Below are positions 9,556-23,243 of a DNA stretch of 64,000 nt, piece by piece. The DNA comes from an uncultured bacterium (GTDB taxonomy: Bacteria; AUK180). The notes beneath the pieces are model-generated. The model had not been told where the DNA came from, did not search any database, and saw nothing but the letters and a program-made list of their open reading frames with translations. A program made the translations under genes and the position numbers. How positions within the stretch are numbered: position 1 is the stretch's first letter; every line of letters begins with the position of its first letter. The stretch is from contig CALMGJ010000011.1 in assembly GCA_937863565.1 (NCBI GenBank), positions 1 through 64,000 of the forward strand. Direction: 5' to 3'.

Positions 9556-9562
9556 ATTTTTT

Positions 9563-9591
9563 ATTTTATCATATTTAGTTCATTTTTTCAA
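9563..9591 (-). promoter_or_regulatory. sigma70 promoter for the kinase-tmk-holB unit, probably leaderless
   Basis: TTGAAA-17nt-TAAAAT with an extended -10 TG, 7 nt before the ATG at 9555. Confidence 0.65.
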
Positions 9592-9596
9592 TACAT

Positions 9597-10562
9597 TTAT
9601 TCATTATCTGTCATTGTAAGATAGAATGCCGCTTGATCCCCTCTTCCCTTTTTGTTCAACGAAATGGCCTTGACTTTATATCTCAATATATCAAAGCGGC
9701 TGAAGATGGACCTTTTCCGGCCATAGTGGAGAGACTTTTCGGAAAGCAGGGGAATGTCTCTTTTATACTGTTCACTCCCCCATACCTGAAAATCAGTGGA
9801 ATCGTAAATGATCTGTTTCACTTTGAAACCGGCGGATCCGGCAAGCCTCTTCAGAGAATCCTCCGAGTAGATGAAATTATGCCTGGGGGCATCAAGTTGA
9901 ACCCAATTCTCCCTGTATTTTTGCCAGGCCCAGCTGTTCATGAGCGGCGTCCGAATAAGGCAGAGGCCGCTCGGAGATAAAAGGCGCCTAACCTCTTTCA
10001 GCATTTCAACCGGTTCCTTCTCATGTTCGAACGAATGATTGAACATGACAATATCCCATTTCCCGTTCAAGTCCTTGAGCGTCATTTTCCCGATCATAAG
10101 ACCTTCCGGCCCCAGGATCGTTTCCGTGATATACGGGTCTATACCCATGAGGTTTTTCATTCCCTCCCGGTGAAGAGCATAAAGGAGGTTACCTGTTCCG
10201 GACCCTACGTCAAGAATACGCGTTTCCTTCGTTATTCTTTTTCCCATTAGATACATGGAAATGAAATTGGGAAAGAAAAAAGTAATGACCCCGCCGATCA
10301 GGGTCCTTCTTTCGAATAAATGCGCATTCCGGAGATTGAATATCACTTCCTTGATCTTGGGGAGCGGAATCACCTTTATCTTTTCAAAACTGTCAAATTT
10401 CCCGGGGTAATATTTCCTGATATCCTCCGGCGGGGAAATTATCTGCATCGTATTGCAGGAGCGGCAAAGGAAATATTCGAATTGTTCGAATGTTCCTATC
10501 TTCTTTTCGGTGAGAATGAAGGGTGTCTGTTCTTCTTCAGAGCCGCAGATCCGGCACTTCAT
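9597..10562 (-). CDS. Class I SAM methyltransferase with N-terminal zinc ribbon
   Basis: MKCRICG...CRSC, ILDVGSGTG, NHSFEH and DAPRH motifs. The likely start is the ATG at 10562, in an ATGA overlap with csaB. Confidence 0.88.
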   Translation of the reverse strand: MKCRICGSEEEQTPFILTEKKIGTFEQFEYFLCRSCNTMQIISPPEDIRKYYPGKFDSFEKIKVIPLPKIKEVIFNLRNAHLFERRTLIGGVITFFFPNFISMYLMGKRITKETRILDVGSGTGNLLYALHREGMKNLMGIDPYITETILGPEGLMIGKMTLKDLNGKWDIVMFNHSFEHEKEPVEMLKEVRRLLSPSGLCLIRTPLMNSWAWQKYRENWVQLDAPRHNFIYSEDSLKRLAGSAGFKVKQIIYDSTDFQVWGSEQYKRDIPLLSEKSLHYGRKRSIFSRFDILRYKVKAISLNKKGRGDQAAFYLTMTDNE

Positions 10563-11539
10563 GAATGGGAACCGCTGGTAGAGGAAGAGTTCAGAACGGA
10601 CATCAGCATCATTCTGAATTTTTTTTCCGTAAGGCGGCCAATGCGTATAGTCCCCTCCGAATCGGCGCCTTTTATGGCATGTTCGCATTTTCTCTCATAG
10701 GAAAGATTGATCCCCCGGATGCCGAGAATCTTCGCTATCATATTGAAGTGCAGCCGCATGCCGATGGAAATATCGCACATCGATAGCACATTAAAAGCGT
10801 TCTCCGGATCGAATTTGATCAAAAAACAATTGCCGGAAACATACCGTCTAAGGCGGTTCAGGATCTTTTCATCCTCCGGAGCGAATGGGATAAGAAGGAA
10901 AGTGTATTTCGGGTCCCCTTTGAATTCCGACAGAACGGAACCCAGAATCTTCACCGCGTGTTTTACATTGTGCCACGGTCTGAGATTTATCCCGATCACA
11001 ATCCCGCTCTCTTTTTTTCCCGGAATTCCGGTGTATTCATCTTTGATCTCGTAGAGCGTATCCCGTGAAAGCATTGCTTTTGTCTTCATCCATTTCCCGG
11101 CCATTTCATAAGAATACCCGTCTCTAACGCTCAGGAAACTGCAGTAATCGAGTATCTTGAACGTAATGAGGCGGTTGAGATAGTTCACGAAAGGTCCCAG
11201 GCCGATATTCTGAAGTTTTACAGGCACGAGAAGAAGTCTGGCTATCACAATAAGCAGAATGTAATAGTAAAGAGAACGCTTGGATGTAATGTCCTGAAAG
11301 ATGCCTCCTCCGGGGAAGATCATTTCCTTCGAGCCGAGAAGATAAGAAATGAACGAAAGCGGATCGTATTTGTAGAAACAGTGCACGCCGTATTTTTGTC
11401 TGTGAAGCCAGGGATCGGCGGTCAGGATAACGATATTTGCGCCTTCGCTTTTGAGTCTTTTCACGGTTCCGTCAAGTATGAGCTCGTCGCCGACATTACC
11501 GCTTCCGAAATAACCGCATAGCATGGTGTATGATCTCAT
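10559..11539 (-). CDS. csaB: Polysaccharide pyruvyltransferase CsaB family
   Basis: GYFGSGNVGDE, GGGIFQDITS..SL.YY, SVRD and GMRLH motifs. Confidence 0.88.
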   Translation of the reverse strand: MRSYTMLCGYFGSGNVGDELILDGTVKRLKSEGANIVILTADPWLHRQKYGVHCFYKYDPLSFISYLLGSKEMIFPGGGIFQDITSKRSLYYYILLIVIARLLLVPVKLQNIGLGPFVNYLNRLITFKILDYCSFLSVRDGYSYEMAGKWMKTKAMLSRDTLYEIKDEYTGIPGKKESGIVIGINLRPWHNVKHAVKILGSVLSEFKGDPKYTFLLIPFAPEDEKILNRLRRYVSGNCFLIKFDPENAFNVLSMCDISIGMRLHFNMIAKILGIRGINLSYERKCEHAIKGADSEGTIRIGRLTEKKFRMMLMSVLNSSSTSGSHS

Positions 11540-12912
11540 CCCTTTCTTAACCCTCTCTTACTTATCATGCCTTCAAGGAGCAGCAGAAGATACCCTATGG
11601 CGGTCCCGAGGAGCAAACCCAGAATAGAGACGGCCACATTGACATAGAGCGGATGCGACAGGTGCTGAAAAGTGTTAAGGACGGAGATATATGAGACCAT
11701 CCCGACGGGCAGCAATATGATCCATCTGATATCGGTCTTCATTTTCTTCAATGCCAGGATTAGAACGGGATACCCGATTACAAATTCCTTGAAGCGGGGA
11801 CGGAAATAGAACGTCCTTTCGAGGCCTTCGCGGATAAAGCCTTCTGTCTTCGAGTACAGTATTCGGCCATTACCCGTTTTCAGGATGATCAGAAAAAGAA
11901 AAACAATGGCAAGGCCGGCAAAGAATACGCCAAACTCCTTCAAAGAGCGCTTTTCAAGGTACAGTATGCCGGCCGCTTGAATGAGCGAAGCGATAAAGGG
12001 AATGATGAACCCTATTTTGATCCCTCTGTATCTCAGGATATAACTCTGATATTCGATCGATGAAAATAACGCCGTACAGCCGATCCCAAGCACGGCGATA
12101 AGAAGGAAAGCCCTTAAATGATCGAGGCGGCCGTTGATAAGCGCGCTCTGGATGCCGAATATCGTCGCTGTATTAAGGGATAGAAGATATAAAAACAAAA
12201 ACCATCTCTCGCGGGCGGCATATGAAAAAATAAGATAAACGGACATAAGAAGGCAGGTCCAGACGGGTACGCCGATATTTTTCACGCGTTTATTTATGAT
12301 AAAAGCCGCAAGAATGAACGATATGAACAAAATGAGTTTGCCGAGCATCCCGCTGCTGAAGTACCGTACGGGTTCCACTTTTAAAGAAATCTTCCTTTTA
12401 AGCAGCGGGTCGATCCTGGTCTTGAGATAAGAGCGCCCGGCGGGAAGGATGAAGACCCTGATGCCCCTTTCCACGGCGGCTCGACGGAAACGCCTGGATA
12501 TTTCCGTATCGTTCAGTTTTAGCGCCTCGTCCTGAGGCACTTCATGCGCACGAACGATCTTCAGCCCGGCATAGTATGCGGGGATTTCGCCATGATCCGG
12601 GAGTCTCAGGTTTTCGGGGATGATCACGGGCAGCCCGAAGAGCTCAAGTTTTTCAAAATACGCTTTCGGATTGCTCTTGATCTCCGCTTCCGTTATCAAT
12701 ACGGCCTCTATTTGGGATATCTTCCGCTCCTTAAGAAGGCGCGAGATACTAACCGTTCTTTCTCCGCAGGCAATGTTCCGGTATGTTCCGCTGTCCACCG
12801 TTTCAAGATAAGTGATATCCAGGGCTTTGAGTTCGGATCCTATGCGGAACACGGAAAAAAAACCGATCAGGATCAAAAGCGCAATAAGGTATAGTGCTGA
12901 ATCTCTACCCAT
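11536..12912 (-). CDS. DUF5693-like membrane protein (CsaB-associated)
   Basis: RAAVERGIR, YRGIK, RPRFKEFVIGYP and NTFQHLSHP motifs. Adjacent to csaB. Confidence 0.7.
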   Translation of the reverse strand: MGRDSALYLIALLILIGFFSVFRIGSELKALDITYLETVDSGTYRNIACGERTVSISRLLKERKISQIEAVLITEAEIKSNPKAYFEKLELFGLPVIIPENLRLPDHGEIPAYYAGLKIVRAHEVPQDEALKLNDTEISRRFRRAAVERGIRVFILPAGRSYLKTRIDPLLKRKISLKVEPVRYFSSGMLGKLILFISFILAAFIINKRVKNIGVPVWTCLLMSVYLIFSYAARERWFLFLYLLSLNTATIFGIQSALINGRLDHLRAFLLIAVLGIGCTALFSSIEYQSYILRYRGIKIGFIIPFIASLIQAAGILYLEKRSLKEFGVFFAGLAIVFLFLIILKTGNGRILYSKTEGFIREGLERTFYFRPRFKEFVIGYPVLILALKKMKTDIRWIILLPVGMVSYISVLNTFQHLSHPLYVNVAVSILGLLLGTAIGYLLLLLEGMISKRGLRKG

Positions 12913-13753
12913 CCTCCTGTTCCATTCTCTTCAAGATGCGTTTTCTTCGTATTCTATAAAAAATATAGGAAATTATCAATAGTAGGGCCCCAAGAACGAA
13001 TAGCGCATTCATATCTATAAGCGACAGTATATTGACATCAGCTCTTAGCCTGTCATAAAATAAAGAATACTCGCCGGAAATATCATTCCCGAACATAAGG
13101 CCGAAAGATCTTCTCCAGTCCTCTGCCGACCGGAGACTTCTTATATAGTTCAGAATACGCCGTTTTCCGTATTTGGCGGCAAGATAAGCGATGAAGGCAT
13201 GGGCAAGCTGATAAGACATCGCATCGGAGTAGAACTCGCTTCGCGACATCTCCAGAAGACCGCTCTTCTTCCGTAACAGAAGCATGAACCTGAACATATT
13301 ATTATCCGAGTAATTCTGGCCGAGATACTGCACCATGCCTTCGTCGAGCCAGATGGGAATGTCCGGGCCCGCAAGATCATTTAGAAGCACATGACCTATC
13401 TCATGGTAGACGAGATTGTCAAGGCTATTGAAAGGGGAGAGCCCGAGTTTCACGGGAACAAGCACAGTGATGTTCCTTTCCGCAGGTACGGCAAATGCGG
13501 AAGTATTCTCGAAACCGGCGGCCTTGTCCCCCTTTTCCCTCTTTCTGAAAAGGACCTTCACCGGCGAAGGCGCCGTTATTCCGAGTTCTTCGGCAAGAGA
13601 AATGGCATAATCGTTCCAAGCCATCAGCTGGGCGTTTTTTATTTCGATGGGCGCGGACTTCTCCATTTCAATGATGCCGTAGCGGACCAAGGTCTCCGGC
13701 CTGCATAATACGCCGAATAAAAAAAGGACCAGTACGATCGAATGTTTAAACAA
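12905..13753 (-). CDS. Peptidase MA family zinc metallopeptidase, membrane anchored
   Basis: Signal peptide, HEIGH zinc motif, PIWLDEG, and a C-terminal TM helix. Confidence 0.8.
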   Translation of the reverse strand: MFKHSIVLVLFLFGVLCRPETLVRYGIIEMEKSAPIEIKNAQLMAWNDYAISLAEELGITAPSPVKVLFRKREKGDKAAGFENTSAFAVPAERNITVLVPVKLGLSPFNSLDNLVYHEIGHVLLNDLAGPDIPIWLDEGMVQYLGQNYSDNNMFRFMLLLRKKSGLLEMSRSEFYSDAMSYQLAHAFIAYLAAKYGKRRILNYIRSLRSAEDWRRSFGLMFGNDISGEYSLFYDRLRADVNILSLIDMNALFVLGALLLIISYIFYRIRRKRILKRMEQEDG

Positions 13754-13870: not shown

Positions 13871-14638
13871 TCATTTGATCTTTTGCCAATATTTTTCCTG
13901 TTCTTCGATAGTCATCCTCGAAAGCTCCTTCCCGTCCTTTTTCACTGCTCTTTCCATCTTTTTGAACCTTGACAGGAATTTTCCGTTCGCTTTTTGAAGG
14001 GCCTCTTCCGATTCGATACCAAGATGGCGCGCGACATTGACAAAAGTGAACAGCATATCCCCGTATTCTTCTATGATCTTTTCTTTTTTCTTCGACCGTA
14101 CGGCCCTGCGGAATTCGGCCGCTTCTTCATCTATCTTTTCAGCAGCGGATTCCGGACCGGTCCAATCGAATCCGATGCGCGAAGCCTTCTCCTGCATGCG
14201 GAAAGCTTTTAAAAGCGCCGGCAGTGAGGCGGGCACTCCCGCGAGCGCAGAACGCCCGTCTTTTTCCCGGTTCTTGAGCCGCTCCCAGTTTTTCAGCACA
14301 TCTCCCTCACCCTTCACCTTGATCGCGCCGAATACGTGCGGATGCCGTCTAATGAGTTTTTCATTTACTCCGGAGATGACATCGGCATCTTTTATCTTAT
14401 ATTCCTTTTCTGCAAGTTCCATCATGAAAATGGCAAGAAAGAAAAGGTCTCCGAGCTCTTCTTTTATCCCGTCTCGGTCTTTTTTCTTGACCTCCTCCAC
14501 AAGTTCATAACATTCCTCGATTATATGCTTCGCCATGCTTGAAAGCGTCTGTTTTCTGTCCCACGGGCATCCCTTTTTCCCGAGAAGGCGTTTTATCGTT
14601 GAGACAAGCTCATCTAAGGGTTCTTTTTTCGATCTCAT
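13871..14638 (-). CDS. mazG: Nucleoside triphosphate pyrophosphohydrolase MazG (tandem domain)
   Basis: GCPWDRKQT, EELGDL, KLIRRHPHVF, GFDW and EEYGDMLF motifs. Confidence 0.95.
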   Translation of the reverse strand: MRSKKEPLDELVSTIKRLLGKKGCPWDRKQTLSSMAKHIIEECYELVEEVKKKDRDGIKEELGDLFFLAIFMMELAEKEYKIKDADVISGVNEKLIRRHPHVFGAIKVKGEGDVLKNWERLKNREKDGRSALAGVPASLPALLKAFRMQEKASRIGFDWTGPESAAEKIDEEAAEFRRAVRSKKKEKIIEEYGDMLFTFVNVARHLGIESEEALQKANGKFLSRFKKMERAVKKDGKELSRMTIEEQEKYWQKIK

Positions 14639-17063
14639 TTATCAGCTCCTTCCATTCGGGATATTTCGCATGCAGCTCTTCCTTCTGCAGGCCTCTCTTC
14701 TCTATGTATGAGGATATCTTCCTGACAGGAAGTGGAGCAGGCAGCATTTCTATTTCATAATAGCACGAAGAGGCGATAAGGTCGGCATAAACCGTGTTCA
14801 GCCGGGACGGGTCGGTCGTTCCTGAAATGATGCGTTTAAGTATGGCAAGCGCTTCCGCGTGCGCCGAGTTCTTAGCAAGAAAAACGGCTTTTTTAAAATA
14901 CAGCTCGGCGGAATTCGGGACTATTTTTAGAAATTCATTAATGTATTCTATCTCGAACCTGCTTCCCATTCTCGCGCAGACCGAAATGAGATTATTCAAT
15001 ATCAGTTTCTTCTCGCCGATATTGCCCATCTGCTCTGCCGTTTCCAGAGCGCTCTGGAAACCGGTGAGCGAACCGTGAAGATCTCCGCTTTTATATCTTA
15101 AGAAAGCCCTCTGCTTTTGTGTGTAAAGTCTGGCCTTTAGTATCTCTGCCGCAAGCTTTTCCTTTCTCTCCCCCTCGATATAGATAAGGGAGGACTCAAG
15201 AAGTTCAACGCTTTTCTCTACTCTTGAAAGCAGTTCTCCGAACGGCGGATCAAGGATATCCTTCAGGGCAGAGGTCACCTCGGTAAGCTGTATCAGGGCA
15301 GGAAGATTGAACGGTTCTATTTCTAAGGCGCTTTTCAGGTATTCCTCGGCAAGGCCGAGCTGTCCCAATTTGGTATAGCCGACACCGATATTGTACCGTA
15401 TTTCATAGTAGGCAGGTTTTAGTGCGTCGGCCGCTTTAAGATGGGATATGCCTGTTTCAATGAGTTCCCCAGAGCGGTTGTCCGGCGTTTTTTTCTGGGC
15501 CAGCATCAGAAAATCATTGCCGAGCTGATAGTGAGCATGCACCGAACGGGAATCCCATTTCAGCGACATTTCGAGCTCTCCGATCGACCGCATTATCGCA
15601 TCTTCGTTCATATCTTTCGCATTGAGCTGATAAAGACCCGCACCCCTGGAAAGGTGAAATGAGCCCTTGAGGTTTTGCACTCTTATGAAAAGGATGAGCG
15701 CGATAAAAGCGGCAAAAAGCGCCAATACTTTTCTTGGAACTCTGAAGGAAGAACGTATACCGGATGTGAAAATACCCAAAGAGACGGCGAACAATGAGAG
15801 CGCGGGTTCATAATTCAGGACCACGGATATCAGATTATCCGCATACATCAGTATGAACATGAAAAGGAACGCTTCCTTAAGCGGTTCCGGTTTTTCCCGG
15901 CGCGCCAAGAACACGGCGCACAGGAAAATGAAGATGTACCATAAGAATCCGGGGACCGATCCGTTGATCGCCCATTCGAGCGCCTGATTGTGCGGATGCC
16001 TTGCATGAGTGGAGAGATTGACGAGATGTTCGTCATTCAGGAACCGGGCCTGGTATTCGGGGTAGAACATCCTGAATCCGGCATATCCGAGACCGAGTGG
16101 TTTTTCCTTTACTATGGAGAGCGCGGTTTTCCACATGAGGCTCCGCTGGCCGACCGAGCCGCTCTGCTCCTTCAACTGACGCGGTATATTGAGAAGCCTT
16201 TTTGATGTAGAGGGTATTACAAGGGCGGTGACGGCCATCGCCGCAAGGAAAGCGAGCAGAGCGTATTTTTTCCTGTAGAGGATGAATAGGAATGCGGTAA
16301 GAGCGAAAGCAAGGAGCACTCCTCTCGTTCCGCTGCCGATAATTGAAAGAAATTCAATAAGAAAGGCGGCAAGAAGAAGCGGAGACCTTTTTGTCATGTA
16401 TGTGTAAAATGTCAATCCCATTATCCCCAGCATATACCCCGAGTAGAAGTTCGGATTCCCCAGCGTGCCGACTATCCTTTGGGAAAAAGGTTCCGAATAT
16501 TTCCGCGCAGGCATAAGCGGATCAAGGCCGGCCCATTGCATGAGACCCCATAGCGCAAGGATCACGCCGGAGTACATTAAAAAACCGGCGAAACGTTCTT
16601 TATCGCGTATATTCTTAGCAAAAAAATAAATGCATACGAAGCCCTGGAAATGTATGACGAATTCGGCGAAGCGGTCTGACAAATGACCGTTCAGGGAGAA
16701 CAGGCACGTCAGAAAGACGCCTGAGACGATCACGATATCGAATAATGAAAAACGCAGCTCTTTCTTTTTTGTCAGATATGACGCAAAAAGGGCCAAGAGA
16801 AAAACGCTGAACACCACTTCTTTCACAAGATACGGATTATATGTCGCGAACCAGAAGAAAAAACCCAATGAAGCAAGGGCGGCGGCTAAAATCCGGTCCG
16901 CCGTATCCTTGAGAAATATTCCGGCGGGGATGCAAAAGAGAAAGAAGAAGAGCGCCGTGATTAGAGGAAGCCGGCCCAGGCCGGGGATCAAGAACGCAAG
17001 AAGGAGAAGAAGGCCCGAAAGAAGCGCAGCAAAGAGCGTCGTCGTTCTGTTAAATAAGCGCAT
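14610..17063 (-). CDS. O-antigen ligase/O-oligosaccharyltransferase (Wzy_C) family membrane protein with C-terminal TPR-like repeats
   Basis: Many TM helices with GTLGNPN, SGTRG, R..MWK.AL...KEKPLGLG and HPHN motifs. TPR-like helices follow (AHYQLGNDF, IRYNIGVGY...ALEIEP). Confidence 0.82.
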   Translation of the reverse strand: MRLFNRTTTLFAALLSGLLLLLAFLIPGLGRLPLITALFFFLFCIPAGIFLKDTADRILAAALASLGFFFWFATYNPYLVKEVVFSVFLLALFASYLTKKKELRFSLFDIVIVSGVFLTCLFSLNGHLSDRFAEFVIHFQGFVCIYFFAKNIRDKERFAGFLMYSGVILALWGLMQWAGLDPLMPARKYSEPFSQRIVGTLGNPNFYSGYMLGIMGLTFYTYMTKRSPLLLAAFLIEFLSIIGSGTRGVLLAFALTAFLFILYRKKYALLAFLAAMAVTALVIPSTSKRLLNIPRQLKEQSGSVGQRSLMWKTALSIVKEKPLGLGYAGFRMFYPEYQARFLNDEHLVNLSTHARHPHNQALEWAINGSVPGFLWYIFIFLCAVFLARREKPEPLKEAFLFMFILMYADNLISVVLNYEPALSLFAVSLGIFTSGIRSSFRVPRKVLALFAAFIALILFIRVQNLKGSFHLSRGAGLYQLNAKDMNEDAIMRSIGELEMSLKWDSRSVHAHYQLGNDFLMLAQKKTPDNRSGELIETGISHLKAADALKPAYYEIRYNIGVGYTKLGQLGLAEEYLKSALEIEPFNLPALIQLTEVTSALKDILDPPFGELLSRVEKSVELLESSLIYIEGERKEKLAAEILKARLYTQKQRAFLRYKSGDLHGSLTGFQSALETAEQMGNIGEKKLILNNLISVCARMGSRFEIEYINEFLKIVPNSAELYFKKAVFLAKNSAHAEALAILKRIISGTTDPSRLNTVYADLIASSCYYEIEMLPAPLPVRKISSYIEKRGLQKEELHAKYPEWKELINEIEKRTLR

Positions 17064-17892
17064 CGAGATATTCGCCCTTTTTGAGAACCGCGGAAAATGC
17101 GGGGAGTCCCGACAACTTTTCGATGATATCCATCTGAGACCTTACAGCGGGAGGGCTCACCGGGATGAGTGAATAGGATAGAATCCTCTTGAAGACCTCT
17201 CTGGCAGGGATGTCTGTCACTGTACTGCTTTTTCCGAAACCGTCAAGAAAATAAAGTGCTTTAATTCGCTTTTTCTCCGAGCAGTACATGTCCCTGCTCA
17301 AGACGCGGTCCACGGGGAGGGCCGCTTTTTCTCCCTCCGTGCCCGGGACCTCCCCCGGGAATAATTCTAAAAGCGCATCTTTTTTCAAATGCAGCGGTTT
17401 AAGAAAAGGGTGGGCAAAAAGATCGCTGTCAATAACGGCGGTGTCGTCTCCGAGAAGAGGTCTTCCCCGCAGAGCAAGGCGGACCGCATTTGAACTTTTT
17501 CCGCTGCCGCTGTTTCCGAAAACAAGCACCGCATCTCCGCCTTCGGCATTGGCGCCGGCATGCGCGGTGAAATATCCGAATATCCTGAGCGAAATCTCGA
17601 ATATCGGGGTCATGATGAACTGATGAAAATAGCTCTGATCCCAGTTCTCATTCATATTGCCCGCGAAAGAAACCCGCCTTTCGGATCTTTCTATCATCAC
17701 ATAGAATATCCCGTCAAGCAGCAAGTAGATTTCATTCCCCTGATGCCATATCTTGAGCTTCCGCTCTTCATGGGATGGGACCAGGCCTTTCATATCCGGA
17801 TAGTAGCCCAGATCGAGGTTTTTCGTATCGAAGAACCTGATAAATATTTCCCGGCCTTCCGGTTCACTGTTCTTTTCTGGGAAAAACGACAA
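17050..17892 (-). CDS. HPr-kinase-related P-loop kinase (type found in RiPP/lasso clusters)
   Basis: AHAGA...VLVFGNSGSGKS...LLGDD motifs. The start is uncertain: TTG at 17892, or ATG at 17981 across a homopolymer frameshift. Confidence 0.8.
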   Translation of the reverse strand: MSFFPEKNSEPEGREIFIRFFDTKNLDLGYYPDMKGLVPSHEERKLKIWHQGNEIYLLLDGIFYVMIERSERRVSFAGNMNENWDQSYFHQFIMTPIFEISLRIFGYFTAHAGANAEGGDAVLVFGNSGSGKSSNAVRLALRGRPLLGDDTAVIDSDLFAHPFLKPLHLKKDALLELFPGEVPGTEGEKAALPVDRVLSRDMYCSEKKRIKALYFLDGFGKSSTVTDIPAREVFKRILSYSLIPVSPPAVRSQMDIIEKLSGLPAFSAVLKKGEYLDALI

Positions 17893-17939
17893 GATCCACT
17901 CTTTGACAAGAGCAGATCCGGAGAAATAATTGATTGCTG

Positions 17940-17972
17940 AAAAACTCAGCGGTTTCTTAAAAAAAAACCGCT
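17940..17972 (-). terminator. possible hairpin/terminator after the precursor gene
   Basis: AGCGGTTT-loop-AAACCGCT followed by GAGTTTTT on the minus strand. It could alternatively be coding sequence of the kinase N-terminus. Confidence 0.35.
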
Positions 17973-18024
17973 ATCCGACATTTGTTCAAGTATAAGGAAA
18001 GTTTCCTTGATACCTGCGCTCACC

Positions 18025-18180
18025 TTAGCCCTTGATCGCGGGGGGTTCGCCTGTGCACCTGGTAAGGGTACAGTCAGCCGAATTTGACGTACCTTCGAGT
18101 GCAACGGTTGCTGTCGTTGACTCTCTTACTTTATTGTACTTTATCAGTACGGGTTTTTGGTACTTCTTTCGAATATTCAT
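18025..18180 (-). CDS. RiPP precursor peptide, 51 aa: MNIRKKYQKPVLIKYNKVRESTTATVALEGTSNSADCTLTRCTGEPPAIKG
   Basis: Translated by hand. GGAGG SD lies 6 nt upstream. The leader has a lasso-type YxxPxL motif with Thr at Y+15. The gene sits between the rSAM and kinase genes, near the RRE and B2 protease. Confidence 0.88.
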   Translation of the reverse strand: MNIRKKYQKPVLIKYNKVRESTTATVALEGTSNSADCTLTRCTGEPPAIKG

Positions 18181-19210
18181 CCAAAACCTCCATTTTTATT
18201 TCCGTTAATCTGCATTTCTGCAGAGAGGGTGTGAACGGGTCTTTCATTTCCGCTTCGTTCATGCCCGGACAAACTCTGCAGTGATTTTTCAATCTGCATT
18301 TCATACATTTTACGAAATTATCATCATTGAAGTCAAGTATTTTTTGAAGATTTTTTGATTTTTCCCATAATTCCTTGAATTGCGTTGTTTTTAAGCTTCC
18401 CAGAGGCCGGCGCCAGACAATGCAGGGTAGAAGATCGCCGTTCGGTGCGATGGCAGCAGTAGATCTGCCGGCCGTGCACATGATGCGGGCATCCTTTTTC
18501 GGTTCCGCCTCAAATTCCGTCCAAAGGCTGTCCGAACCTGACATTTTTATCCGGAATCGTTCTGCGAATTTCACTTTATCTGAACTTGCAAGGTAATTCA
18601 GGGGACAGAAAGAACCCGAATCCGTGACGAAAAGTATCTCATCGAATGTGATCAGAAAACCGTTATCCCTGGCATACTTGTAGACCTTAGGGAGTTCCCA
18701 GGCATTGAAATCAAAGATCATATACTTCAGCCGGAGAGGAAGTCCGTGCTCTTTCATTAATCTGAACACTTCCATAAGTTTTCTGAAACTTCCGGGCACG
18801 CCCGTAACTTTGTCATGCGTTTCTTCTTTGATTCCGTAAATGCTGATATCGATATTCCGCAAACTGAGAGATTTCAATTTTCTTACGGAATTTTCATCAA
18901 GGATATAGCCGTTGGTGAAAACGGTCGTTGAGAACCTGAGATCTACGGCGGCGGCGAGAATTTCCCAGATATCCTTTCTCAGGAATATCTCTCCTCCAGT
19001 AAAAGCAAGTTCCAAGGTGCCGGCTTCCCTCAATTCCTTCAGTATACTGATCACCTTTTCCGTTCCGAGCTCCTCGGTATCCCTGATGTCCCTGACGCAG
19101 TGTATGCAGTTAAAATTACAGCGGTGAGTCAATTCGAAATTGATCGAAACAGGTATCCTATTATCGATTATCTTCTGTTGGATCTTTTTAAAATCGCCTG
19201 TTCCGCTCAT
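18131..19210 (-). CDS. Radical SAM/SPASM peptide maturase
   Basis: CNFNCIHC and FTGGE motifs. The SPASM domain reads C-x12-G-x4-C...CMKC-x5-C-x2-C...C (7 Cys). Confidence 0.93.
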   Translation of the reverse strand: MSGTGDFKKIQQKIIDNRIPVSINFELTHRCNFNCIHCVRDIRDTEELGTEKVISILKELREAGTLELAFTGGEIFLRKDIWEILAAAVDLRFSTTVFTNGYILDENSVRKLKSLSLRNIDISIYGIKEETHDKVTGVPGSFRKLMEVFRLMKEHGLPLRLKYMIFDFNAWELPKVYKYARDNGFLITFDEILFVTDSGSFCPLNYLASSDKVKFAERFRIKMSGSDSLWTEFEAEPKKDARIMCTAGRSTAAIAPNGDLLPCIVWRRPLGSLKTTQFKELWEKSKNLQKILDFNDDNFVKCMKCRLKNHCRVCPGMNEAEMKDPFTPSLQKCRLTEIKMEVLDEYSKEVPKTRTDKVQ

Positions 19211-19602
19211 CTGAACTCTCCCAATTTTTCGTATCTTTCGGCCGTGTTATCCGGCTCGAACATTATATGACTGCATTTTTCAAGCCACATATGCCCGGAT
19301 ATGCGTCCTTTCAACCTTTTTACGCCAAGAACAATATATATATCCGGATGGCGGTGTTTCAAATACGCATAACCGAGATAGGTATATCTTACACAGTTCC
19401 CGCAGAAAATGTTCATTCCGAACACCGTTTTGTACAGGATCCCGCTGATCGTCCTCATTATGTCTTCGTCGGAGAAACCGAAAAGGAGAACGGGTAATTT
19501 TTTTAAGGTCCGGACGATCCGTTTCGGTCCAAGATCGAAAAAGATCATTATCTCTATCAGTGTCAGCGTTAAGACCATTTCCAGTTTGAGTACCGTTCTC
19601 AC
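19207..19602 (-). CDS. Lasso peptide B2-type transglutaminase-like leader peptidase
   Basis: NCVRY...YIVLGVKR...GHMWLE: Cys/His catalytic motifs of the Transglut_core3 type. Confidence 0.85.
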   Translation of the reverse strand: MRTVLKLEMVLTLTLIEIMIFFDLGPKRIVRTLKKLPVLLFGFSDEDIMRTISGILYKTVFGMNIFCGNCVRYTYLGYAYLKHRHPDIYIVLGVKRLKGRISGHMWLEKCSHIMFEPDNTAERYEKLGEFR

Positions 19603-20003
19603 TTCTCTTTTTCGATGATCTTCTCGCTGATAAGGTCCGCGACAATATACGCGATATCAGATCTTAGGTCCGTCCGCTCGATCTCTTTTCCGTATTCCGT
19701 ATAAAGGCTGCCCTCGATCTCGGAAAATGACATCTTCTTCTCTATCATGTCAAAGATCTCGGTCCCCATCTCGTTCAGGCTGTAGTAATACTGGTTCTTG
19801 TTATTGTAAAGGACTATTTCCCCGTCAAGTTCATTGTACATGATATCCCTGCAAACCCTGAATTTGTCTTTAATATTGAACTTGATACGATGCCCCTCTA
19901 TTTTAACGGCGAGGTCTCCCGTAGCATCATTCATCTCAAGTTCGGTCTTTTTTTCGTTGTCTTCCGGTCTGCTTGGTCCGTTCGTTCCATTTTCACCTTG
20001 CAT
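19599..20003 (-). CDS. PqqD family RiPP recognition element (RRE)
   Basis: ELDGEIVLYN...YYSLNEMGTEIFDMI...L..EY...DI...V.DL....II pattern, with an AAGGAG SD. Confidence 0.88.
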   Translation of the reverse strand: MQGENGTNGPSRPEDNEKKTELEMNDATGDLAVKIEGHRIKFNIKDKFRVCRDIMYNELDGEIVLYNNKNQYYYSLNEMGTEIFDMIEKKMSFSEIEGSLYTEYGKEIERTDLRSDIAYIVADLISEKIIEKEK

Positions 20004-21465
20004 GTTCTTTCTCCTTTATTCCGAGCATAGCCTGCCCTATCATTATTCGTGAAAAATCCTTTCTCTCTACCTGAAGTACTATCTCGCCTTTGAACATTAC
20101 GGCGATATCATCGCAGATCTTGAGCAGTTCTTCGAGCTCAGTAGAAAAAATAAGTATCGCCTTGCCCATGTCCCGGGCCTCCATCAGAAGGTCGTGAACA
20201 AAGCGAACACTTGCAAGATCGAGGCCGCGCGTCGGGTTCTTGGCAATGATCACCTGTTTATCCGCAGAGAATTCCCTGGATAAGATGAATTTCTGCTGAT
20301 TGCCCCCCGAAAGCGACGAAGCAGGGGCAGAAGCGGACGGATACTTAACTCCGTAGTGTTCCATCTCTTCTATCATCTTTTTCTTCTTCCCTTTCCTGTC
20401 GATCATCCCTCCCGGGCCGGGTTTTAAATTTTGCGGTGAAAGAAGATAGTTCTCCGAAAGAGGCATTTCCGGGACAAGCGCTTCCGTTGTTCTATCCTCC
20501 GGGATCAGGGCAATGCTCTGCCTGAGCGATCCGGAAACATCGCGCCCGTCCAGAAATATTTTTTTTATTCCATCTGCAGCTCCGACGATCACGTCGAAGA
20601 ATTCTTTCTGGCCATTACCTTCGATGCCGGCGATGCCGAGTATCCTCTTTCTATGAAGTTTCAGATCCTTGATGTTCAAACGCCTCTTTTTGTATACCTG
20701 TTCGAACACGATATACGGTTCCTCGCCCGGAGCGGTATGGTCATACTGCTTTTCCTCGCATTTGAACAGTATGTCTATCAGGTGCTTTTCAGAGACCTCG
20801 GAAGCGCGGAAGTCTCCGAGGACCTTGCCTTTCGACATAGCGATCACCCGCGTGGAGACCTCGAAGATCTCAGATAATTTGTGAGTAATGAAAATGATAG
20901 TTTTGCCGGAAGCGGCAAGTTCCCTGAACACCTTATAAAGACCTTTAATCTCTTCTTCGGCAAGAAGGGCAGTAGGTTCATCGAAGATCAGAAGTTCATA
21001 ATTCTTGTAAAGCAGTTTCAGAAGTTCCGTCTGCTGTTTCTCTCCGACGGAGATCTCGCCTGCTTTCCGTTCCAGGTTTACGGTCAATCCGTATTCCCTT
21101 TTCAGCGACTCGAGCTTTTTAACATACTCTTTTTTATTCAGGAAAGGGCGCCCGCCTTCGGCACCGAGTACTATATTCTCCCAAACCGTGAAATTGTCGA
21201 TGAGAAGCAGATGCTGATGGACCATGCCTATGGAAAGCTCCCGGGCCTTGACCGGGTCGAGCGGAAGAATGCTTTTCCCGTTCACAAGGATATCCCCGGA
21301 ATCGGGACCGTAAAGGCCTGTCAGCATTCTGACAAGCGTTGTTTTCCCCGCGCCGTTCTCTCCGAGAATGCTTACGATCTCCCCTCTGTCGAGCGTGAAC
21401 GATATTCCGTCATTCGCCTTAAGATCGCCGAATGTTTTCGAGATATCCAGAATCTCAATCTTCAT
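19993..21465 (-). CDS. Nucleoside/sugar (CUT2) ABC transporter ATP-binding protein
   Basis: GENGAGKTT, VHQH, FDEPT, LSGGNQQK and NPTRGLD motifs in a two-domain ATPase. Confidence 0.92.
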   Translation of the reverse strand: MKIEILDISKTFGDLKANDGISFTLDRGEIVSILGENGAGKTTLVRMLTGLYGPDSGDILVNGKSILPLDPVKARELSIGMVHQHLLLIDNFTVWENIVLGAEGGRPFLNKKEYVKKLESLKREYGLTVNLERKAGEISVGEKQQTELLKLLYKNYELLIFDEPTALLAEEEIKGLYKVFRELAASGKTIIFITHKLSEIFEVSTRVIAMSKGKVLGDFRASEVSEKHLIDILFKCEEKQYDHTAPGEEPYIVFEQVYKKRRLNIKDLKLHRKRILGIAGIEGNGQKEFFDVIVGAADGIKKIFLDGRDVSGSLRQSIALIPEDRTTEALVPEMPLSENYLLSPQNLKPGPGGMIDRKGKKKKMIEEMEHYGVKYPSASAPASSLSGGNQQKFILSREFSADKQVIIAKNPTRGLDLASVRFVHDLLMEARDMGKAILIFSTELEELLKICDDIAVMFKGEIVLQVERKDFSRIMIGQAMLGIKEKEHAR

Positions 21466-22465
21466 CCGCTCCTTCCAGGTTTATCCGTATCTTGCCGCTT
21501 ATGATATCCCTTTTTATCTGTTCCACTTTTTCTATGATACCGGCATCAAGGAGGTCCTTATTATATTCATCGAGCGCATATCCAACCGCATCCTCCGCCA
21601 GGCCAAGCGCTACGGGGCCCGGTCTGAATTCTCCGTCCTTCAATTCCTTTATCGAGAAGTACACCGCCGTATCAACTCTTTTTATCATGCTCGTAAGGAC
21701 ATAGCCGGGCGCCAGGTAGTTCTGGTTCGAATCTACGCCTATGGCGAATTTTTTATTCTTTTCGGCGGATTTGATGACTCCGTTGCCCGTCGAACCGGCC
21801 GCGTGAAACACGATATCGGCCCCTTTTGAGAAAAGCGTATCTGCGAGGAGCTCTCCCTTTGTGGGATCGTGGAATGCCTCCTGGCCCGAACCGGCATATG
21901 TGATCTCCACTTTTATTTCAGGATCGATGTATCTGGCTCCCTGTATATAACCGAGTTCGAATTTTTTGATAAGCGGGACTTTCATCCCCCCAACGAACCC
22001 GATGTGTTTCGTTTTCGTTTTCAGGGCCGCAATGACCCCTACGAGGAAAGAACCCTCTTCTTCCTTAAAGATCAGGGATTTGATATTCTCGCCTTCGCAT
22101 ACGGTATCGATGATCACGAATTTTGTTCCCGGATAGAGTTTGGCCGCATCCGTTATCGAAGCGCCCATAAGGAAACCCACGCCGATGACGAGATCGCATC
22201 CCATCGATGCGAATGATGAAAGGTATTTCTTATCCTCGGACATTTTAGCCGGCTGGCCCAGATTGATATCGACGGATAATTCCTCTTCCGCCTTTTTCAG
22301 CCCGCGGTATGCGGAATCGTTGAAGGATTTATCTCCGAGGCCGCCCACGGAAAGCACCATGCCCACTTTGGGATTATCGGTCACGGCTGTATTTTTCTTC
22401 TCCGAACATGACATCAACACGAGCAGGCAGCAGATAACAACGGCCATTTTGGCGGATCTATTCAT
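21455..22465 (-). CDS. BMP family (PnrA-like) nucleoside-binding lipoprotein
   Basis: Lipobox LMSC, GGLGDKSFN, GADIVFHAAG.TG.G, IGVDSNQ and TSMIKRVD. The start is approximate. Confidence 0.92.
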   Translation of the reverse strand: MNRSAKMAVVICCLLVLMSCSEKKNTAVTDNPKVGMVLSVGGLGDKSFNDSAYRGLKKAEEELSVDINLGQPAKMSEDKKYLSSFASMGCDLVIGVGFLMGASITDAAKLYPGTKFVIIDTVCEGENIKSLIFKEEEGSFLVGVIAALKTKTKHIGFVGGMKVPLIKKFELGYIQGARYIDPEIKVEITYAGSGQEAFHDPTKGELLADTLFSKGADIVFHAAGSTGNGVIKSAEKNKKFAIGVDSNQNYLAPGYVLTSMIKRVDTAVYFSIKELKDGEFRPGPVALGLAEDAVGYALDEYNKDLLDAGIIEKVEQIKRDIISGKIRINLEGADED

Positions 22466-23243
22466 AATACCTCTTGACCAGGCCATCGGCAAGGTCTAAT
22501 CCTTTTATTATTTGATTTTTTTTATGCATTTCCAAAACAATGCGGGGAGACGGGATCAGCGTGGCCATCTTCTCGAATAAAGCCGGAAAATCGATCGTGC
22601 CGTCACCCGGCGGAAGGTGGGCATCGCAATCGCCTGCATTATCGTGAAGATGAACTTCGATGATATCCGTACCGAGCGTGTCCAGCCATACGGATAGCGG
22701 GGCGTGCGAAAGAAAATGGGCATGTCCCGTGTCGAAACAGATGCTCAACGGATGAACTTCACAAAGGCCGTCGAAGATCCTTCTGAACGTATCGGGATCC
22801 CTTTCAAAAACATTCTCGATGAGGATATGCGCACCTTGCCTTTTTTCAAGCACGCCGGCGAGGAACCGTCGGGCATTTTCGAGCCATCTTTTTTCCATCT
22901 CGGGGACCTGCACTTTTTCGAACAAATATCCCGTATGCAGCACCACTGCGAGCGAGCCGAGATGCTCGGCGATGTCCAGCGCGGCATTGAGACGCCGCGC
23001 ATATATCTCCGTAAAATGAGGATCGTCCGAGCCCAGATTGATCTCTTCCCAGGGAGCGTGAATAGTGGTTTTAAATCCTTCCGCCGCTTTTTTCAGATCG
23101 GAGATATCCTTCTCTTCCAGTTTACATATCCTGTATCCGCTTATGTATATCTCAAAACCGCAAAGCCGGGGATGTTTTTGGGCTTCATCGCTCCACCATG
23201 GTATCTCCCTGTAAGGAAGGTGCGAATAGAGCCCGGGCCTCAC
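22458..23243 (-). CDS. Sugar phosphate isomerase/epimerase / AP-endonuclease-2 TIM barrel protein
   Basis: HAPW, VLHTG, IEN, CFDTGH and HLHDN..DAHLPPGDG motifs. Confidence 0.85.
   Translation of the reverse strand: MRPGLYSHLPYREIPWWSDEAQKHPRLCGFEIYISGYRICKLEEKDISDLKKAAEGFKTTIHAPWEEINLGSDDPHFTEIYARRLNAALDIAEHLGSLAVVLHTGYLFEKVQVPEMEKRWLENARRFLAGVLEKRQGAHILIENVFERDPDTFRRIFDGLCEVHPLSICFDTGHAHFLSHAPLSVWLDTLGTDIIEVHLHDNAGDCDAHLPPGDGTIDFPALFEKMATLIPSPRIVLEMHKKNQIIKGLDLADGLVKRYYE

Follow-up and report, generated by a model that had tools for sequence, protein, structure and literature searches.

Can the leader-handling machinery of lasso peptides serve a maturation enzyme other than the lasso cyclase? 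Classes of peptides that are made on the ribosome and then modified post-translationally (RiPPs) are defined by a class-defining enzyme, and the lasso leader module (proteins B1 and B2) has so far been regarded as lasso-specific. The question is raised by a locus of an uncultured bacterium (GTDB lineage AUK180), analyzed here within a stretch of 64,000 nucleotides (nt) that we call the window (contig CALMGJ010000011.1 of assembly GCA_937863565.1, positions 1 to 64,000 of the forward strand). On the minus strand at 17050-20003, the list of open reading frames (ORFs) contains five co-directional, tightly packed genes, some of them overlapping. A first-pass annotation, made from the letters alone, had read these as a PqqD-type RiPP recognition element (RRE), a lasso-B2-type Cys protease, a radical S-adenosylmethionine (rSAM) enzyme with a seven-Cys SPASM domain, a 51-amino-acid (aa) precursor, and an HprK-like kinase, and had proposed a hybrid, possibly undescribed RiPP class in which the rSAM enzyme takes the place of the cyclase. 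All five genes lie where that annotation had placed them, and its five assignments are borne out by the domain, ortholog, and profile evidence given below, while its claim to novelty stands in a narrower form.

Our analysis indicates that the locus is probably a functional RiPP cluster in which a lasso leader module (RRE, B2 protease, and HprK-like kinase) is combined with an rSAM/SPASM maturase that replaces the lasso cyclase, and, as part of the same reading, that the cluster is probably ancient and has been passed on vertically in a single small, uncultured phylum. The five-gene set is beyond chance, the same genes recurring in the same order in related genomes. The cluster joins lasso-type leader handling with sactipeptide-like maturation, and it falls outside the lasso, sactipeptide, linear polyphosphorylated peptide (LPP), pyrroloquinoline quinone (PQQ), and mycofactocin families, because for each of these at least one of the defining features tested fails.

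RRE, B2-like protease, and kinase

The RRE is a discrete protein that matches PF05402 (PqqD) above cut-off (E = 1e-8). Its best NCBIfam match is lasso_PqqD_Bac (2.2e-10, below cut-off), the top two models both being lasso PqqD chaperones, and all eight RRE orthologs match both lasso PqqD models, in every case below those models' own cut-offs. A B1 RRE of the PqqD family, one of the marks of a lasso cluster, is present. The orthologs are 95-114 aa long, against 134 aa for the window ORF, which carries an N-terminal extension of about 40 residues (19934-20003) that does not appear in the orthologs in the alignment; either the true start is the internal Met24 (19934), or the window copy has gained a low-complexity tail.

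The 131-aa protein is a putative, divergent, lasso-B2-type (transglutaminase-like, C96) Cys leader peptidase. As a single sequence it has only sub-cut-off matches, to Transglut_core3 (0.014) and to NF033537, the lasso B2 model (7e-4), and the assignment comes from profile-profile comparison. Specifically, a profile built from seven orthologs and searched against 1.84 billion representative proteins retrieved 721 proteins at E≤1e-3, of which the six at E≤1e-30 are the cluster's own clade and the next 40 relatives all match NF033537 (40/40). Alignment of the seven-ortholog profile with the profile of those 40 relatives by hhalign gave a probability of 99.8% and an E value of 9e-29 over 132 columns. 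Residues Cys70, His104, and Glu116 are invariant in the orthologs and align to conserved positions of the relatives' profile. The AlphaFold2 (AF2) model of the protein has a predicted local distance difference test (pLDDT) score of 89.6. Among the relatives retrieved with the B2 profile, P0146, P0234, and P0157 are fusions of the B2 domain, two of them with an NTP_transf_5 nucleotidyltransferase, while in one, of 350 aa, the B2 domain is preceded by a sub-threshold C-terminal part of a Radical_SAM domain.

The kinase, as a single sequence, matches Hpr_kinase_C (6.5e-4) and HprK_rel_A (1.1e-7) below cut-off, and its orthologs match HprK_rel_A in six of six cases. A six-ortholog profile searched against PDB finds PEPCK (5e-5) and HprK/P (1.5e-3) over the P-loop and GDD region, and a Foldseek search with the AF2 model (pLDDT 73.5) finds the same two proteins (PEPCK, E = 9e-8; HprK/P, E = 1.6e-5). 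The P-loop reads GNSGSGKS; residues H111, K132, and D149 are invariant, and position 150 is Asp in five of six orthologs and Glu in the sixth. These four positions correspond to the His-Lys-Asp-Asp motif that is reported to be catalytic in lasso-tailoring kinases (PMC9266682). A search for homologous proteins with the kinase as query returned only the query itself.

The precursor and its leader

The precursor ORF encodes the peptide MNIRKKYQKPVLIKYNKVRESTTATVALEGTSNSADCTLTRCTGEPPAIKG, which has no Pfam or NCBIfam match. Orthologs of this peptide occupy the same place in six related loci, with protein identities of 53-80%, compared with 25-59% for the enzymes. Between the window and the orthologs, synonymous differences are saturated (pS 0.83-0.95) while pN is 0.14-0.29, indicating that the frame is under purifying selection. 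Of its 51 columns, 19 are invariant across the seven orthologs: M1, Y7, K9, P10, L12, K14, Y15, T22, E29, G30, T31, C37, L39, R41, C42, E45, P46, K50, and G51. The 51-aa ORF, which is preceded by a Shine-Dalgarno GGAGG, is thus, to judge from its conservation, a real gene, with a predicted lasso-type leader layout.

In lasso leaders, a YxxPxL motif spans positions -17 to -12 (PMC10368454), and Thr is usually found at -2 (PMC10368454, PMC10885120). Applied to the window peptide, this rule and the spacing of Y7, P10, and L12 put Thr22 exactly at -2 and start a 28-residue core at residue 24; Y7, P10, L12, and T22 are invariant in seven of seven orthologs. Lasso ring closure uses an Asp or Glu at core position 7-9 (PMC10368454), and the only conserved acidic residue near the N terminus of the predicted core is a Glu at position 6, so the core does not have lasso geometry. 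Rather, the predicted core is characterized by two Cys residues, C37 and C42, that are present in 7/7 orthologs, by the absence of any aromatic residue (0/7), and by a Thr or Ser at residue 25, core position 2, in all seven (Thr in four).

The rSAM/SPASM enzyme

The rSAM enzyme matches PF04055 (Radical_SAM, 6.2e-22) and PF13186 (SPASM, 1.6e-8), both above cut-off. In an alignment of 15 homologs, the CxxxCxxC motif (C31, C35, and C38) and seven SPASM Cys residues (C245, C263, C302, C305, C311, C314, and C333) are invariant or nearly so; an rSAM enzyme with a SPASM domain and auxiliary-cluster Cys residues, as in sactipeptide and ranthipeptide systems, is therefore present. The matches to AlbA, SkfB, and StsB begin at about position 100 of those NCBIfam models, and the CxxxCxxC motif lies already at residues 31-38, indicating that the enzyme has no N-terminal RRE domain of its own. 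Presumably, it relies on the discrete RRE.

With all NCBIfam models, the enzyme scores far below cut-off. In particular, the scores, in bits against cut-off, are 89/850 for AlbA, 78/300 for SkfB, and 72/625 for StsB, placing the enzyme outside these characterized maturase families, and the PapB model is not among the NCBIfam matches listed. The full-length NCBIfam matches include PqqE (2.5e-31) and the mycofactocin maturase (4.7e-26), with scores of 108.9 bits against 381 for PqqE and 91.8 against 265 for MftC, again outside the families. The best PDB match is SkfB (2.7e-21), followed by PqqE. The enzyme also matches the WgkB model (1.8e-27), and six of eight RREs match the model of the WgkC chaperone. 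No grouping of the enzyme with a characterized class, a point that the first-pass annotation had singled out for checking, was seen.

Recurrence within one phylum

Among 5.8 billion proteins, the closest relatives of the rSAM enzyme comprise four at 56-59% identity and one at 42%, all others being at 36% or less. In species-representative genomes, the order RRE-B2-rSAM-precursor-kinase is found in loci L011-L014 (rSAM 57-59% identical) and L015 (43%), and in L016 and L096 the same order is interrupted by contig ends. The recurrence of the architecture with similar precursors, proposed as a check in the first-pass annotation, is thereby established. The related loci share flanks: a TIM-barrel protein, a Bmp lipoprotein, and an ABC ATPase upstream, and a Wzy_C/TPR (tetratricopeptide repeat) protein and MazG downstream. 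The window genome and eight others make up the whole of this uncultured phylum in the genome collection; eight of the nine have an rSAM ortholog, and the ninth (G001) contains the kinase's C-terminal half at the end of a contig, such that the cluster is present, at least in part, in 9/9 genomes. The nine genomes are kin, and presence in all of them shows ancestry and not independent retention. When metagenomes were scanned with the rSAM alignment, 80 loci were retrieved, but identity exceeded 34% only in short partial matches (up to 45%), and thus no further close members were found; a metagenome scan with the precursor alignment gave 519 pattern stretches, none of them encoding a relative.

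To place the cluster among more distant systems, we surveyed 160 loci (80 genomic and 80 metagenomic) around distant rSAM homologs, retrieved with a six-sequence rSAM alignment and scored with hidden Markov models built from the window clade, over up to 6 kb on each side and on many short contigs. This survey found an RRE in 56 loci, an HprK-like gene in 32, and a B2 gene in seven. Outside the six loci of the clade (n = 154), the counts were 50, 27, and 1, respectively. The 27 outside kinase matches, 11 of them at E≤1e-5 and several from near-duplicate loci, come from several phyla and differing gene orders. The only outside B2 gene is in L018, from a metagenome-assembled genome of Omnitrophota, and matches NF033537 with 41.2 bits, above the cut-off of 33. 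Thus, rSAM with lasso-like RRE and HprK-like kinase appears to be a broad, uncharacterized theme to which B2 is a rare addition. In L017, L019, L021, and L036, candidate precursors with a K-Y-x-K/R-P motif follow the rSAM gene.

Several loci found in this survey have features of their own. L018 (3640-7756) has, in another gene order, B2, RRE, a 282-aa protein with weak PEPCK-type P-loop matches, rSAM/SPASM, and a B12-rSAM protein; its candidate precursor, an ORF of 51 aa, contains three Cys residues and begins with a leader of the K-Y-x-K-P type. In two distant loci with rSAM, RRE, and HprK-like genes (L019:4727-5986 and 8222-9873; L036:9296-10471), glycosyltransferase-like ORFs are present, and in L019 also an ABC ATPase/permease pair, all judged from their translations. 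In the window's own genome, outside the window, G000:C3:13550-14916 encodes an 86-aa PqqD protein (PF05402, 5e-14) and a 331-aa rSAM/SPASM enzyme; a 48-aa ORF with a W-x-x-P leader motif and three Cys residues overlaps the rSAM 3' end, and the locus has neither B2 nor kinase.

Layout of the cluster and its flanks

The features of the cluster are collected in Table 1.

Table 1. Positions in the window of the cluster genes, their signals, and the adjoining possible accessory gene
Feature	Position	Strand	Description
RRE gene	19599..20003	-	134 aa from ORF start at 20003; discrete PqqD-type, lasso-B1-like
B2-like protease gene	19207..19602	-	131 aa; 4-nt overlap with RRE gene
rSAM/SPASM gene	18131..19210	-	359 aa; 4-nt overlap with B2 gene
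Precursor Shine-Dalgarno GGAGG	18187..18191	-	6 nt before ATG, within rSAM gene; read from the sequence
Precursor ORF	18025..18180	-	51 aa; first 50 nt within rSAM 3' end
Predicted leader, residues 1-23	18112..18180	-	Y7-x-x-P10-x-L12 and invariant Thr22; seven-ortholog alignment
Predicted core, residues 24-51, and stop codon	18025..18111	-	28 residues; seven-ortholog alignment
Terminator-like hairpin and T-rich tail	17947..17973	-	between precursor and kinase genes; consensus scan and fold
HprK/PEPCK-fold P-loop kinase gene	17050..17892	-	280 aa, TTG start; 132-nt gap after precursor ORF
Wzy_C/TPR membrane protein gene (possible accessory)	14610..17063	-	817 aa; start overlaps kinase gene end by 14 nt

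The region between the precursor and the kinase folds with a z score of -4.39 in the window. Clear hairpin and U-run terminators are found at the same place in L015 and L096, and none was seen there in L011, L012, and L014. The window hairpin may serve as an attenuator; it may raise the precursor-to-enzyme ratio, or may split off a kinase transcript.

The membrane protein encoded downstream of the kinase matches PF04932 (O-antigen-ligase-like, E = 3.3e-19) and TPR families. An ortholog follows and overlaps the kinase gene, by 4-47 nt, in L011, L013, L014, and L015, and thus, with the window included, in five of the five loci that reach that far. This overlap hints that the RiPP genes may be translationally coupled to one for a glycan-handling protein. 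A search of five distant loci (L017, L018, L019, L021, and L036) turned up no Wzy_C/TPR gene, and the link of this gene to the cluster therefore comes from synteny within the phylum.

Upstream, the 3' end of a double-nucleotide-binding-domain ABC ATPase gene (19993-21465) is overlapped by 11 nt by the RRE ORF. This ATPase and a Bmp-family lipoprotein (together 19993-22492) stand directly upstream of the cluster with no permease gene beside them; just two BPD_transp_2 permease matches exist in the genome, both on other contigs (C21 and C28), and the RiPP genes occupy the spot where permeases usually come after such ABC ATPase genes. Further downstream on the same strand (7360-13753) are envelope-related genes for a Peptidase_MA_2 protein, a DUF5693 protein, a polysaccharide pyruvyl transferase, and a methyltransferase, together with one for a Ser/Thr protein kinase that has three PEGA domains.

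Comparison with known systems

Paeninodin-type and Bsf-type lasso clusters share with the window a discrete B1-type RRE, a B2 protease, an HprK-like kinase, and a YxxPxL leader with a predicted Thr at -2; in the Bsf system, the RRE serves kinase and protease alike, and the kinase targets core Ser3 (PMC10368454). In contrast to these phosphorylated lasso clusters, the window cluster has no Asn-synthetase-like cyclase (and none is recognizable in the genome) but an rSAM/SPASM enzyme instead, its core lacks ring geometry (Ala/Thr at position 1, Glu at position 6), it has neither nucleotidyltransferase nor ABC exporter, and the three proteins in common are all below the curated cut-offs of the lasso models.

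LPP systems (Popov et al. 2026, PMC13381572) are described as having no cyclase; their machinery comprises a lasso-like RRE, an HprK kinase, and a SipW-like peptidase, their leader is of the YxxP type, and they often lie beside polysaccharide loci. The window resembles them in lacking a cyclase and in having a lasso-like discrete RRE, a YxxP leader, an HprK-like kinase, and polysaccharide neighbors. The RRE and kinase are thus present, but the SipW-like signal peptidase, NTP transferase, and MsbA-like exporter of LPP loci are not found among the cluster genes or their immediate neighbors, and LPP is patchy in Bacillota, whereas the window cluster is universal in its small phylum.

The maturases SkfB, AlbA, StsB, and PapB are, like the window enzyme, seven-Cys SPASM proteins acting on a Cys-bearing core, with SkfB the best solved relative. 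Unlike in sactipeptide and ranthipeptide systems, the RRE of the window is a separate protein, and all models are far below cut-off. To our knowledge, no B2 protease or HprK-like kinase occurs in sactipeptide or ranthipeptide systems, and none was found there in the literature searched.

PqqD/PqqE and MftB/MftC likewise pair a discrete PqqD-family chaperone with an rSAM/SPASM enzyme without a fused RRE, and have a short precursor that is vertically inherited lineage-wide; they differ in that the window enzyme is below the cut-offs of their models, its precursor has neither the Glu/Tyr pair nor a C-terminal Tyr, and the companion genes are different. Finally, by their model names and by weak matches, the uncharacterized NCBIfam cassettes SynChlorMet (ScmC/D/E/F), GeoRSP, and HPr-rel-A pair PqqD-family, rSAM/SPASM, and HprK-related proteins. 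The scores (HprK_rel_A, 31 bits against a cut-off of 200; GeoRSP_rSAM, 97/400; ScmE, 91.5/400) place the window proteins outside these cassettes, of which the literature searched, with subscription journals largely outside its scope, makes no mention.

Proposed pathway

Our reading suggests the following pathway. The RRE would bind the precursor at Y7-x-x-P10-x-L12 and present it to the rSAM enzyme, which would crosslink the core, most likely through thioethers from C37 and C42. We favor thioethers on three grounds: the invariance of both Cys residues, the lack of aromatic acceptors, and the thioether chemistry of SkfB, the nearest solved enzyme. The kinase would phosphorylate a conserved Ser or Thr, the candidates being residue 25, near the predicted cleavage site, and the invariant T31. 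Residue 25, at core position 2, is close to core Ser3, which BsfK and LppK phosphorylate with RRE assistance (PMC10368454, PMC13381572). The B2 protease, together with the RRE, would then cut after residue 23, leaving Thr22 at -2 and releasing a 28-residue modified peptide.

Several observations weigh against this account. A Pfam and NCBIfam scan of the cluster genes revealed no exporter or immunity gene. Taken singly, the window B2 and kinase proteins fall below the curated cut-offs of every family model. Structural likeness of the B2 protein is weak: Foldseek found no PDB match to the AF2 model at E≤1e-3, the matches to transglutaminase-like proteases (vasohibins, a Cytophaga protease, LapG, and PeiP) being at E of about 0.1, and VIA gave Z scores of 4.6-5.5 for transglutaminase-like folds with a best row of Z 6.0, a level common for this tool. 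Thioether formation is guessed from the two invariant Cys residues and the distant likeness to SkfB, and the candidate precursors of L019 and L036 have no Cys, indicating that the wider rSAM group is not uniformly Cys-directed. The known lasso kinases act on Ser, and LppK rejected Thr (PMC13381572), the residue found at position 25 in most of our orthologs. In 3/6 loci, a terminator-like hairpin stands between precursor and kinase, and the kinase may be transcribed apart. Prediction of an RRE-precursor complex passed weakly and so gives weak support for binding, with a score of 0.55 against 0.04 for the best of three controls; contact agreement between runs was at least 71% and partner pLDDT at least 49. 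The mark applied is reached by 58/80 solved complexes and 2/110 mismatched pairs, of which 7/80 and both mismatches have scores of 0.60 or less, and the pass may reflect likeness only, because lasso RRE-leader complexes are already solved.

Alternative explanations

The same enzymes might make a conserved physiological molecule and not an antibiotic-type secreted RiPP, for example a PQQ-like or mycofactocin-like cofactor, or a phosphorylated peptide joined to envelope polysaccharide via the Wzy_C/TPR protein; we rate this as possible but doubtful. It would fit the presence of the cluster, at least partly, in all nine phylum genomes at the same syntenic place, the nearly invariant core, and the lack of exporter and immunity genes. 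The combination of a discrete PqqD protein and an rSAM/SPASM enzyme without fused RRE is the architecture of PqqD/PqqE and MftB/MftC, and PqqE and the mycofactocin maturase are among the full-length matches, but scores with the PqqE and MftC models fall far short of cut-off, a PqqA-type Glu/Tyr pair and a C-terminal Tyr are both missing from the precursor, and no redox partner genes were seen. A tie to the envelope is suggested by the overlap of the Wzy_C/TPR and kinase genes in every locus that reaches that far, by the polysaccharide genes downstream (pyruvyl transferase and DUF5693), by the location of LPP and paeninodin clusters, too, in polysaccharide loci (PMC13381572), and by the finding that the phospho-Ser of a lasso peptide can bear hexoses (PMC9266682). 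However, the nine genomes are kin and their neighborhood is syntenic, such that Wzy_C adjacency and universality may just reflect shared descent, and the distant rSAM, RRE, and kinase loci searched have no Wzy_C gene, one of them (L019) carrying an ABC exporter.

Equally tentative is the possibility that the rSAM enzyme performs other chemistry, namely epimerization, Thr/Ser ether crosslinks, or a C-C link with Lys50, Glu, or Arg, and that the Cys pair forms a disulfide or a metal site. No characterized rSAM family scores above cut-off, the enzyme matches WgkB and most RREs match WgkC, candidate cores free of Cys occur in the related loci L019 and L036, and the invariant E29-G30-T31, R41, E45-P46, and K50-G51 are unexplained by two thioethers. 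Yet C37 and C42 are invariant in every ortholog, and the best solved relative is a thioether synthase. Moreover, a core without aromatic residues makes C-C crosslinks of Trp/Tyr type impossible and rules out Trp/Tyr/His crosslinks of the kinds known from streptide, WGK, triceptide, and darobactin.

That the kinase and the Wzy_C/TPR gene are mere syntenic neighbors, with a RiPP unit consisting of RRE, B2, rSAM, and precursor only, seems improbable to us. The hairpins between precursor and kinase in the window, L015, and L096 would agree with such a division, as would the synteny of the whole neighborhood, from the ABC ATPase upstream to MazG downstream. A leaky terminator, however, often follows the precursor gene in RiPP operons. 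Further, HprK-like genes accompany rSAM and RRE genes in the 27 of 154 loci outside the clade described above, and the catalytic residues of the kinase are conserved.

Lasso cyclase homologs in the genome

The remaining alternative, a cryptic lasso pathway in which an unlinked Asn-synthetase-like protein is the cyclase and the rSAM enzyme and kinase are tailoring enzymes, was judged very improbable and was rejected on the cyclase scores, the polysaccharide contexts, the patchy distribution of the one Cys-less paralog, and the core geometry. In its favor, the leader, RRE, and B2 protein are all lasso-type, an invariant Glu stands at predicted core position 6, and the genome, although not the window, contains homologs of the cyclase. 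Specifically, PF00733 (Asn_synthase) has no match on the 234-kb contig of the window, in line with the first-pass annotation, which had seen no cyclase in the 64 kb; the genome-wide search that it had suggested gave four strong matches and one weak match, all on other contigs. The four homologs score 215, 159, 192, and 42 bits with the lasso cyclase model, none near its cut-off of 525. Three of the four are ordinary AsnB-type enzymes, with an Ntn-glutaminase Cys at the N terminus and scores (428.8, 420.5, and 400.2 bits) above the 267.1-bit cut-off for glutamine-hydrolysing asparagine synthase. In the fourth (G000:C37:29876-31666, 596 aa), the N-terminal catalytic Cys is missing, a trait shared with lasso cyclases. 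All four sit among polysaccharide genes (glycosyltransferase, flippase, and acyltransferase) without an adjoining PqqD or B2 gene, and neither the single other PqqD gene of the genome nor its single other sub-threshold B2-like match lies next to any of them. Of the eight other phylum genomes, one has a clear ortholog of the Cys-less paralog (49% identity) and two more have 32-34% matches; the same query did not find it in G001, G002, and G005 (91%, 92%, and 69% complete), whereas the cluster, at least in part, is in all nine. The related loci have no Asn_synthase gene within 6 kb. Finally, the predicted core has Ala/Thr at position 1 and its acidic residue at 6, not at 7-9 (PMC10368454). An Asn-synthetase-like macrolactam cyclase that could belong to the cluster is thus missing from the genome, although, at 95.5% completeness, its absence is not absolute.

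Discussion

The combination that the first-pass annotation had called a hybrid, possibly undescribed class, with the rSAM enzyme in the cyclase's place, is supported by the gene content. Its novelty is narrower than had been supposed, since lasso-type discrete RREs beside rSAM enzymes had already been noted (RRE-Finder, PMC7470986), and the LPP systems and the NCBIfam cassettes also precede it. The part that is still new is the joining of a B2 protease to an rSAM enzyme and a kinase, plus the phylum-wide conservation. A 2023 review of RiPP leader proteases lists the C96 transglutaminase-like family only for lasso peptides (PMC10885120), and a full-text literature search, with subscription journals and supplements outside its scope, found no B2 peptidase or HprK-like kinase joined to an rSAM maturase. 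Crosslinking, phosphorylation, and leader removal are what we infer from sequence for the product of this cluster.

In a bolder version, which we consider unlikely, the locus would hold the first lasso-type B2 peptidase outside lasso peptides, in a RiPP pathway ancestral to and universal in an uncultured phylum; its core would be crosslinked, phosphorylated, and passed to the Wzy_C/TPR protein to give an envelope peptide-glycan conjugate, or would become a conserved cofactor or signal, in either case a housekeeping molecule and not a weapon.

On the reading that we prefer, a functional cluster with an rSAM maturase in the cyclase's place, the locus suggests that the B1 and B2 module is portable and able to serve an rSAM maturase. 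If so, B2 peptidases would be a genome-mining handle for non-lasso RiPPs, the rSAM enzyme, kinase, and B2 protease would make a new enzyme trio for peptide engineering, and, with lasso peptides and LPP as the other two, the product would represent a third branch of the emerging HprK-phosphorylated peptides. The vertical, phylum-wide conservation of the cluster and its near-invariant core stand in contrast to the patchy occurrence of related RiPPs (PMC13381572). For this uncultured phylum, they hint that the product has a physiological function, perhaps linked to the polysaccharide of the envelope, which would be unusual for a RiPP.

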